DNA of 32,000 nt from Clostridia bacterium (GTDB taxonomy: Bacteria > Bacillota > Clostridia > TANB77 > CAG-465), in the NCBI GenBank assembly GCA_017478805.1, contig JAFVCY010000060.1, forward strand, positions 278 through 32,277, in the 5' to 3' direction. Under the pieces are notes generated by a model. That model saw only the letters and a program-made list of their open reading frames with translations, was not told where the DNA came from and ran no database searches. Positions 27,852 through 28,265 of the stretch are shown in pieces. The translations under genes were made by a program, and so were the position numbers. Each line of letters starts with the position of its first letter. Position 1 is the first letter of the stretch.

Positions 27852-28265
27852 TTAGATATTAGACTTTAAGATAGTTACAACTGGGCGAACCCCAAAGATG
27901 TTGTCATCGCCGAAGACGTCGCAGTCGACGCCCTCATACTCGCCACCGACAAACCAAACGCCGTAGTCACCGTCAAAGGGAGCAGAGCCAAGCCAATAAT
28001 TTAAGAAGTTATTTGCTGATGCAAAATCTCCACTATTTGCATATAATAATGCTGAATTTGATGCTTCTAATCCGTCTGCTTCAGCTTTAGTTAAAAGTCT
28101 TCCTTCTCCTCCTACTGCTGTTCCATAAGCTTTTGCTGCTGTTAAGGCATAACTTTCATGCGTTGCAGTAGGCTCATTGTTTAAACCGCCATTTTCATCT
28201 GTATATGCTGATTTTATTGCACCAGTTTCTGTATCCCACCGTACTACAATTTTTGCGAGTAATTT
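27852..28265 (-). pseudogene. 3' fragment of a lectin-like (DUF1566/C-type-lectin-fold-like) gene, with no start codon
   Basis: An open frame of about 137 codons ends ...NFLNYWLGSAPFDGDYGVWFVGGEYEGVDCDVFGDDNIFGVRPVVTILKSNI*. Upstream it is closed by TAA (28266-28268), 10 nt from the recombinase stop. Confidence 0.55.
27881..27994 (-). other. GC-rich, adenine-poor, NNC-codon island (candidate DGR variable region)
   Basis: By hand count about 68 of 114 nt are G/C, and only about 14 are A on the coding strand. 19 of 33 codons end in C. The flanking sequence has the usual AT-rich composition. Confidence 0.45.

Follow-up and report, generated by a model that had tools for sequence, protein, structure and literature searches.

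The 32,000-nt stretch of Clostridia bacterium contig JAFVCY010000060.1 that was analyzed here at its full length (positions 278 to 32,277, in the following termed the window) carries on its minus strand a short island that is rich in GC and poor in adenine. We regard this island as the variable region (VR) of a target gene of a diversity-generating retroelement (DGR) and assign a probability of about 0.87 to this reading. The intact allele of the gene is predicted to encode a type-IV-pilin-like surface protein with a C-terminal ligand-binding domain that features a YWLGSA...VW.V.G...GVRPV pattern; in the window, the gene is split by an inserted element. An initial annotation had already pointed at a DGR variable region, and this proposal now finds support outside the window, namely in the islands of a whole protein family, in predicted template repeats (TRs) that reside in cassettes and in relatives that use AT-rich codons. 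The locus is almost certainly a further example of a known DGR mechanism, with a stand-alone VR in the gene for a pilin-like adhesin of a low-GC Clostridium-like gut bacterium. The island would have been written by a cognate TR, which was not recovered.

Composition, codon usage and boundary of the island

The VR (27882-27995, minus strand, 114 nt) runs from TGG CTT GGC TCT GCT to GGG GTT CGC CCA. It is defined by composition, by codon statistics and by homology to the TRs of ten metagenome contigs (L020-L029), with changes concentrated at TR adenines. Read on the coding strand, positions 27881-27994 have a GC content of 59.6% (A 12.3%, T 28.1%, G 35.1%, C 24.6%). This is the highest value for any 114-nt stretch in the window (z = 5.3); the second highest is 45.6% and the mean is 27.1%. 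In frame (27995-27882), 20 of the 38 codons end in C and 25 end in G or C, compared to 6.5% C-ending codons in the long open reading frames (ORFs) of the window (7,703 codons), in which any other stretch of 33 codons contains ten of them at most. The binomial probability of at least 19 C-ending codons among 33 is ~1e-14. Codon usage flips abruptly at about position 27995: 60-nt stretches upstream of this point have ~40% GC, ~40% A and 0-2 C-ending codons out of 20, and those in 27990-27885 have ~60% GC, 10-17% A and 12-13 C-ending codons out of 20. Amino acids specified by NNY codons normally take the T-ending codon in the window genome. An adenine-poor, GC-rich island of NNC codons in an AT-rich genome, as described in the initial annotation, is thereby borne out, and the translation of the ORF tail given there is reproduced as well (...NYWLGSAPFDGDYGVWFVGGEYEGVDCDVFGDDNIFGVRPVVTILKSNI*).

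At its 3' end, the island closes with the GC-rich sequence GGGGTTCGCCCAG (27881-27893, minus strand), which resembles an initiation of mutagenic homing (IMH) element and corresponds to the final stretch common to VR and TR in related cassettes. Such an element had been expected here, and GGGGTTCGCCCAG indeed sits exactly where the identity of TR and VR stops in those cassettes. The island thus combines several DGR features: it is 3'-terminal in the target ORF, it is depleted in adenine, it has NNC or NNT codons where the TRs of the family have AAY, and it ends in a GC-rich boundary of the IMH type that is followed by stem-loops, with three hairpins lying within 150 nt.

Related islands in other genomes

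The same 3' island is present in L002, L004, L005, L008a/b, L010, L012, L014 and L015, all of which are loci with ~25-34% GC. The genes for P0006, P0005, P0011 and P0132 plus a tandem paralogue likewise carry it; they are surrounded by unrelated chromosomal genes, and the GC content of their loci is 25-32%. Islands of this family have a length of ~107-113 nt, a GC fraction of ~0.6, an A fraction of ~0.13-0.2 and 12-14 C-ending codons out of 20. They start with TGG NTT GGN TCT GCN and end with GGG GTK CGC CCA GTT, the terminal sequence being GGGGTKCGCCCAG. In the tandem paralogues L008a and L008b, differences between the islands are confined to the first and second positions of NNC/NNT codons and the third positions are constant, which is the product expected if AAC/AAT codons are mutagenized at their adenines. 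P0002 and P0007, which are closest at the protein level (45-48% identity), encode the YWLG...GVRPVV motifs with AT-rich codons (GC 0.25-0.37, 0-2 C-ending codons out of 20). The protein sequence as such does therefore not impose the composition of the island. Downstream hairpins are absent from the loci of P0002 and P0007.

A scan of species genomes with a family-wide VR pattern yielded VRs in four metagenome-assembled genomes (MAGs) of Clostridia along with matches in GC-rich genomes, and the latter were rejected as islands because they are out-of-frame chance matches. The pattern was anchored on CGCCCAGT, and TRs, which read CGCCCAGC, were thus missed. Two relatives that are not associated with a DGR have many NNT codons, specifying Asn, Tyr, Asp and Phe, at the place that corresponds to the VR (L030, 1480-1616, and L031, 1520-1660). 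Such codon usage may resemble the C-to-T decay of a region once written by a DGR, and amino acid composition alone may also account for it. Such NNT-rich VR equivalents could act as a rough clock for the time that has elapsed since cassette loss.

Template repeats and cassettes of the family

From the VRs of the family a TR was inferred that reads GTG TGG AAY GTG AAY GG ... GGG GTK CGC CC, and metagenome contigs were scanned with the pattern GTGTGGAAYGTGAAYGG...GGGGTKCGCCC. Ten matches were obtained (L020-L029), all of which are AAC-rich copies of the island (35-38% A) on gut contigs with 26-34% GC. In L021, a complete cassette is encoded on one strand. It comprises the gene for a 789-aa pilin-like target protein with its VR, ~220 nt of hairpins, a TR, bAvd (PF22296, 3.5e-12) and a reverse transcriptase (RT; RVT_1, 4.6e-15) with a GNMVSQ motif. 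An RT of the DGR clade is present in the relatives L021, L032 and L042, and bAvd is found in related cassettes; relatives of the RT make up 1,631 clusters at E <= 1e-20. Over 107 nt, TR and VR differ at 20 adenine sites and at no other site in L023, at 18 and none in L024, at 20 and two in L022 and at 25 and five in L026. Throughout L020-L029, no difference between VR and TR is seen up to the end of GGGGTKCGCCCAG, and the two diverge at once thereafter (TTRTA... in the VR, CTTTC... in the TR). The predicted TR is therefore found in canonical cassettes, in L023 and L024 with adenine-only differences between TR and VR, and the family is a genuine DGR target family.

The island in the window can be aligned with these TRs. 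A 5' block, TGGCTTGGNTCTGCT, and a 3' block, GGGGTTCGCCC, are common to the window island and the family TRs. Over a gapless core of 77 nt, 19 of the 28 adenines of the L026 TR are changed in the window as opposed to 8 of the 49 other bases (Fisher 1.2e-5). With the L020 TR, 20 of 29 adenines and 9 of 48 other bases are changed.

Several cassettes of the family feature additional elements. The RT cluster P0238 occurs in L032-L041 (e.g. L032, 5077-7320) in a target-TR1-bAvd-RT-TR2 arrangement, in which TR2 is located after the RT gene and has no adjoining VR. These cassettes are adjoined by genes for ToxN and a Mob_Pre relaxase, and the target alleles, whose VRs measure 110 or 113 nt, differ between contigs that have the identical P0238 RT. 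L042 contains two bAvd genes, Mob_Pre and a serine recombinase. Related cassettes are probably mobile because Mob_Pre relaxase and ToxN genes adjoin them and because an additional TR follows the RT gene in some of them. VRs located next to a cassette (L021 at 7765, L027 at 4939, L028 at 1409) have a 3-nt deletion relative to the TR and are identical among contigs with 95.8-98.7% overall identity, which suggests that activity of these DGRs is a rare event in nature. Small valine-rich hypothetical proteins have been annotated on the strand antisense to the TRs (P0253-P0293, 41 clusters, ...SWAHPVVVAVAEVVVVQVAVVAIH..., e.g. L021, 7324-7551, plus strand). These proteins are an annotation artefact, through which TRs can nevertheless be located in protein searches.

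Not all members of the family have retained a cassette. In L010, a MAG of Clostridium sp. 26_22, the VR and hairpins (1932-2123) are as in L022 and directly abut, on their downstream side, the 3' end of the ORF situated beyond the RT in L021; by this alignment, the TR-avd-RT block is cleanly missing. In L005, a remnant of the segment preceding avd is all that is left, ahead of gyrA, and the ORF beside the VR, considered as a possible RT, is gyrA itself. Judging from these gene arrangements, cassette loss is recurrent among the relatives and leaves orphan VRs behind.

The interrupted gene and its intact allele

What the window contains of the target gene is a 3' fragment of ~129 codons with the stop codon TAA at 27854-27852 (27852-28240, minus strand). 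It has no start codon and is 99% identical to residues 280-407 of the 408-aa type-IV-pilin-like surface protein P0001. The initial annotation had placed the island at the 3' end of a lectin-like ORF. The 3' location stands, and the ORF itself turns out to be a fragment. The open frame continues to 28259, and the stretch past 28240 is sequence of the inserted element. An exhaustive HMMER search with the fragment yielded 129 representatives, the best of which was P0001 (99% identical to fragment residues 7-134). A word-indexed protein search with the fragment gave zero matches, no model from Pfam or NCBIfam matched it, and Rfam recognized just one tRNA plus chance-level matches in the window and in 27480-28300.

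P0001 is encoded on the metagenome contig L001, in which the gene is uninterrupted. Positions 4902-15294 of L001 align to 28243-17852 of the window with 99.92% identity, i.e. with seven single-nucleotide polymorphisms (SNPs) and one indel over 10.4 kb, none of which falls in the 3' part of the target gene including the island. The sequence common to the window and the intact allele starts at 28240. At the junction, ...GTAGTACGG is directly followed by TGGGATACAG in the window; in the empty site of L001, ...AACTACTGG is found at the same place ahead of TGGGATACAG. The part of the gene that encodes the N-terminus does not reside in the window and is encoded beyond the inserted element. The target gene is unable to make protein in the window genome unless the element excises.

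The encoded protein

P0001 begins with a hydrophobic prepilin-like N-terminus (MKKKGISLIVLVITIIIIIILAG), which is followed by a single Listeria-Bacteroides repeat (Flg_new, 9.6e-10) and by a C-terminal domain of ~190 aa. The N_methyl motif was matched in 11 of 40 relatives and not in P0001 itself. A profile of the family matches the N-termini of geopilin, PilE1, PilA and MshA, all of them solved type IV pilins, with E values from 3e-5 to 2e-2. For the C-terminal domain, the 40 relatives have the consensus E.FYVI...LLAKYNL...AFSS..YW...GGTGRLMT..EA...LNYWLGSA.....VW.V.G.........GVRPV.EISKS. and DUF6273 was weakly matched in five of them.

AlphaFold2 predicts the C-terminal domain with pLDDT values above 90 across most of residues 210-408 of P0001; the model of the fragment has a mean of 81.6. 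In Foldseek, the C-terminal (DUF1566) domain of Legionella Lcl (TM 0.53 on the target) came out on top together with C-type-lectin-like proteins from snake venom, with E above 0.2 and low TM scores. The resemblance to C-type lectins or DUF1566 proposed in the initial annotation is weakly supported: no Pfam model matches the fragment, and C-type-lectin-like proteins lead the fold search below significance. On the basis of the model, lectin-like is a plausible label for the C-terminal domain. P0004 (485 aa) has two C-terminal domains in tandem that are near-identical except for their tips (NTNGSSGTLGGNSYRESAPCGIRP versus DTNGSKGVLGGNSYSDHWRCGVRP), reminiscent of two VRs within a single protein.

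Hairpins behind the stop codon

Conserved hairpins, termed A to D, are located behind every VR of the family, irrespective of whether a cassette is adjacent. Their family sequences are GTGCC-GAA-GGCAC for A, GGTGCTAATTTCT-GGA-AGAAATAGCACC for B, AAATTTTGG-GCAACTGCA-CCAAAATTT for C and GTGCC-GTAA-GGCAC for D, and the family consensus fold comprises 23 pairs, eight of which exhibit compensatory changes. In the window, DNA folding places three hairpins on the minus strand: one with a stem of 10 bp and a loop of 8 nt at the position of B (27791-27818), one at the position of C that has TGGGCA and CACCAAA in common with family hairpin C (27748-27778) and one at the position of D that is not followed by a T-tail (27707-27735). 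The DNA fold of 27690-27860 has an energy of -28.3 kcal/mol (z = -5.3 compared to shuffled sequences). A function of the hairpins as intrinsic terminators was considered and rejected, given that T-tails are missing and that a terminator scan of 27450-28300 found none. By analogy with the stem-loop of phage BPP-1, the hairpins may play a role in the recognition of the target by the DGR.

Origin of the island and present status of the locus

Following the mechanism established for BPP-1, a TR of ~110 nt that is rich in AAC codons would be transcribed, and the DGR RT together with Avd would copy it, misincorporating bases opposite adenines. The resulting cDNA would replace the VR up to the GC-rich boundary GGGGTTCGCCCAG. 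AAC and AAT codons would thus become NNC and NNT codons, and the GC-rich, adenine-depleted composition of the TR would be imposed on a genome with 27% GC.

A number of observations weigh against this explanation of the island and have to be taken into account. The closest TRs, those of L020 and L026, differ from the window island by 8-11 non-adenine mismatches and two codon indels, the window having two extra codons in the 5' part; as far as sequence comparison goes, none of the recovered TRs is the window island's own template. A scan of the window for a TR, in which any mismatch was allowed where the candidate has A, produced 31 non-A mismatches over 141 nt for the best non-self candidate. 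Neither RVT_1 nor bAvd was detected by Pfam among the ORFs of the window, and tblastn with a related RT was negative in the window and in L001. This agrees with the initial annotation, in which TR, Avd and RT had likewise been reported as lacking from the window. For the intact allele, the 4 kb upstream and the 10 kb downstream are likewise devoid of a TR, Avd and RT. Four pattern scans of viral contigs (a TR with R/M/W degeneracy, two VR/TR patterns and the inferred TR) resulted in zero matches, the cognate TR is not among the ten metagenome TRs, and none of the 41 clusters of antisense-TR ORFs exhibits the L-I-L motif required of the window's TR. Window and L001 have the same island and otherwise differ by the seven SNPs and one indel over 10.4 kb; for another family member, four alleles that are 2-3% different elsewhere agree in their VR, all 29 nucleotide differences residing upstream of nt 714 of 897. 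The hairpins of the window have diverged in sequence from the family consensus, and a C-type-lectin fold of the C-terminal domain is no more than plausible.

Further searches for the template gave the same result. No TR that differs from the window VR only at adenines was present in any fetched locus. The TRs beside the RT homologues P0238 and P0159 were considered as templates and found to be TRs of other types. An NNC-tolerant VR pattern gave zero matches in 185,579 species genomes (GTDB representatives), and the window VR is not among them. The negative results for a cognate TR and RT cover the window, L001 and the collections mentioned; the genome of the window strain beyond the window is outside them. 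The window VR is stand-alone, with no cassette nearby.

Strain comparison, from which hypervariability had been expected, did not reveal any: the VR is the same in the window and in L001, i.e. in the only two sequences available. Invariance of this kind is weak evidence because VRs next to a cassette are also identical between strains with 95.8-98.7% identity. L023, which has the same TR as static relatives, possesses a different VR that departs from it only at adenines. There is no evidence for ongoing diversification at the window locus. Provided that the island originated from a DGR, we consider it probable that the VR is orphaned or dormant, the cassette having been lost or having been a transient passenger on a mobile element. 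A smaller though appreciable likelihood then falls to a VR still targeted from a distance by a DGR at another genomic site.

An active remote target would imply a TR-Avd-RT cassette that resides elsewhere, is maybe mobilizable and rewrites the DGR-derived island in trans, with the hairpins as target-recognition elements. It would be in line with third-position C in the island, which has not decayed toward 6.5%, unlike in P0002 and P0007, and with the intact state of the IMH-like boundary and the three hairpins. DGRs outside phages with remote targets have been documented (PMC5758913), related cassettes adjoin Mob_Pre and ToxN genes, some of them with a second TR that lacks an adjacent VR, and invariance between two strains counts little when even cassette-adjacent VRs are static. 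Nevertheless, the gene is interrupted in the window genome, the cognate TR is absent from every collection searched, the VR is the same in the second strain L001, the hairpins have diverged from those beside working cassettes, and cassette loss has occurred repeatedly (L010 without TR-avd-RT, the remnant in L005). On the whole, an island that is still being rewritten appears rather unlikely. It is also conceivable that the VR was not retrohomed in place and that its source was another DGR target gene, from which VR and hairpins were transferred as one module through recombination or gene conversion. Mosaics do exist in the family, as exemplified by L008a and L008b with identical 5' ends and 3' flanks and different middles. 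The 29 differences between L008 and L009 cluster upstream of the VR, and the closest protein relatives are devoid of the island. However, the donor segment would itself still need a DGR origin, a donor with the window VR did not show up with the NNC-tolerant pattern in any of the species genomes, and the boundaries of the island are those of the TR, as predicted for retrohoming. We therefore judge this route to be improbable.

Two explanations manage without a retroelement, and both are very improbable in our view. The local GC content of 60% on a background of 27% is what would be seen if a short segment had recently been acquired from a GC-rich organism, a possibility already raised in the initial annotation. 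However, the same island is found in many genes of AT-rich Clostridia and homologous TRs are located on AT-rich contigs. In addition, the island is in frame, keeps the conserved W, G and GVRP residues and owes its excess to NNC codons and adenine depletion. The pattern matches in GC-rich genomes are the out-of-frame chance matches mentioned above, and no GC-rich genome with a near-identical 114-nt segment was found. Alternatively, the codon bias could stem from selection at the level of protein, translation or structure, without any mutagenic mechanism, since the region is rich in Asp, Gly, Tyr, Phe, Cys and Asn, most of which have NNY codons only. Against this stand P0002 and P0007, where the same domain and motifs are encoded by NNT/NNA codons with 25-37% GC and 0-2 C-ending codons out of 20, and the usual preference of the window genome for T in the NNY codons of these amino acids. 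A variable region written by a DGR remains our preferred explanation for the island.

Comparison with known systems

DGR targets that are not adjacent to the retroelement are well established: 45 of 372 DGRs have such targets, 73 in total, with seven in Treponema (PMC5758913). VRs of the DUF1566-like CLec2 type constitute a known class (PMC5758913), and a G-type pilin is listed among the scarce domains bearing VRs (PMC11661182). Large metagenome surveys have been unable to detect remote targets (PMC8144416). Among DGRs with non-adjacent or remote targets, those of Treponema denticola (TvpA paralogues) and Legionella (LdtA-type CLec2/DUF1566-like VRs) are similar to the case reported here in that the VR makes up the terminal ~110 nt of the ORF, AAC codons of related TRs correspond to NNC codons, VR and TR share a GC-rich boundary and a hairpin is located downstream. 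The target is likewise surface- or adhesin-like, the copy in the window is far from any cassette, and the cassettes of the relatives encode bAvd and an RT with a GxxxSQ motif. The window copy differs in that its cognate TR and RT were not found and that the gene is interrupted. Furthermore, the N-terminus is type-IV-pilin-like, the relatives have a target-TR-avd-RT order, in some cases with an additional TR behind the RT, and several conserved hairpins instead of one follow each VR of the family.

With the DGR of Bordetella phage BPP-1 (Mtd, avd-TR-brt), the family shares adenine-specific differences between TR and VR (in the relatives L023 and L024), an IMH-like GC-rich 3' boundary and a stem-loop after the VR. 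In contrast to BPP-1, the family is chromosomal or located on a mobilizable element in AT-rich Clostridia, has a different target fold and gene order and is known from sequence alone. DGRs of Bacteroides are reported to diversify Type V pilus adhesins (bioRxiv 10.1101/2024.11.15.621889). Both cases concern gut bacteria in which a pilus-associated protein is varied by a DGR at its tip or adhesive portion; they differ in phylum and in the N-terminus, which is of the type IV pilin kind in the family studied here (N_methyl in 11 of 40 relatives, profile matches to PilA, PilE and MshA).

The inserted element and neighbouring loci

The end of the integrated mobile element that splits the target gene occupies 28241-32000 (minus strand), runs off the window and is absent from the intact allele in L001. 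It encodes two tandem large serine recombinases (28278-29975 and 29956-31626, minus strand), both with the Pfam domains Resolvase, Recombinase and Zn_ribbon_recom, and also contains a DUF6870 gene (Pfam) that extends from 31719 to beyond 32000 on the same strand. The stop codon of the first recombinase gene is only 38 nt away from the junction. BLAST searches of phage and plasmid collections with the locus and the recombinase element did not return a close match, and exact look-ups showed that neither of the two window recombinases is on record. Elements with large serine recombinases are known to split genes, and the skin element, which interrupts sigK in Bacillus and Clostridioides, is a case in point. 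The arrangement in the window resembles such elements in that the recombinases are located at the element end inside a coding sequence and in that another strain (here L001) has the uninterrupted allele. It differs by the presence of two tandem recombinases, and there is no sign of regulated excision here.

Genes for a HEPN protein (26891-27187) and a nucleotidyltransferase (27168-27512) with overlapping ends form a HEPN/MNT toxin-antitoxin arrangement that converges on the target gene and is kept in L001. Downstream of the intact gene, L001 contains the HEPN/MNT pair, rnc, a radical SAM gene and further genes; upstream, genes for an ABC transporter, NT5C and ACP are located before the contig ends. 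At some distance in the window, a minus-strand cluster (5499-10091) includes a gene (9279-10091) whose product is a T2SSF/TadC-like membrane protein, along with five ORFs that do not match any Pfam model and several of which encode short hydrophobic N-termini. Genes for MecA, YlbF, SSB and a Spo0A-like regulator are found nearby. The cluster may be a pilus assembly locus and as such be relevant to a pilin-like DGR target.

Implications

The case of the window demonstrates that a DGR variable region can be recognized from raw sequence in an AT-rich genome even without the retroelement. The template that was predicted from the VRs and later found in metagenomes constitutes an independent check. 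The target family, type-IV-pilin-like surface proteins of gut and rumen Clostridia, has been described sparsely at most, and repeated loss of the cassette, leaving orphan VRs, is documented for it. For the window locus itself the practical message is modest, as it contains a disrupted copy of a DGR target gene. The conserved hairpin module provides a testable cis element by which a DGR could find remote targets. It is tempting to speculate that stand-alone VRs of the family with their multi-hairpin module are trans targets of DGR cassettes on mobilizable elements and that the serine-recombinase element serves as a reversible on/off switch, a scenario that we consider doubtful at present. If it were true, a visiting retroelement would rewrite the resident chromosomal pilin-like adhesins of gut Clostridia and may then be lost.

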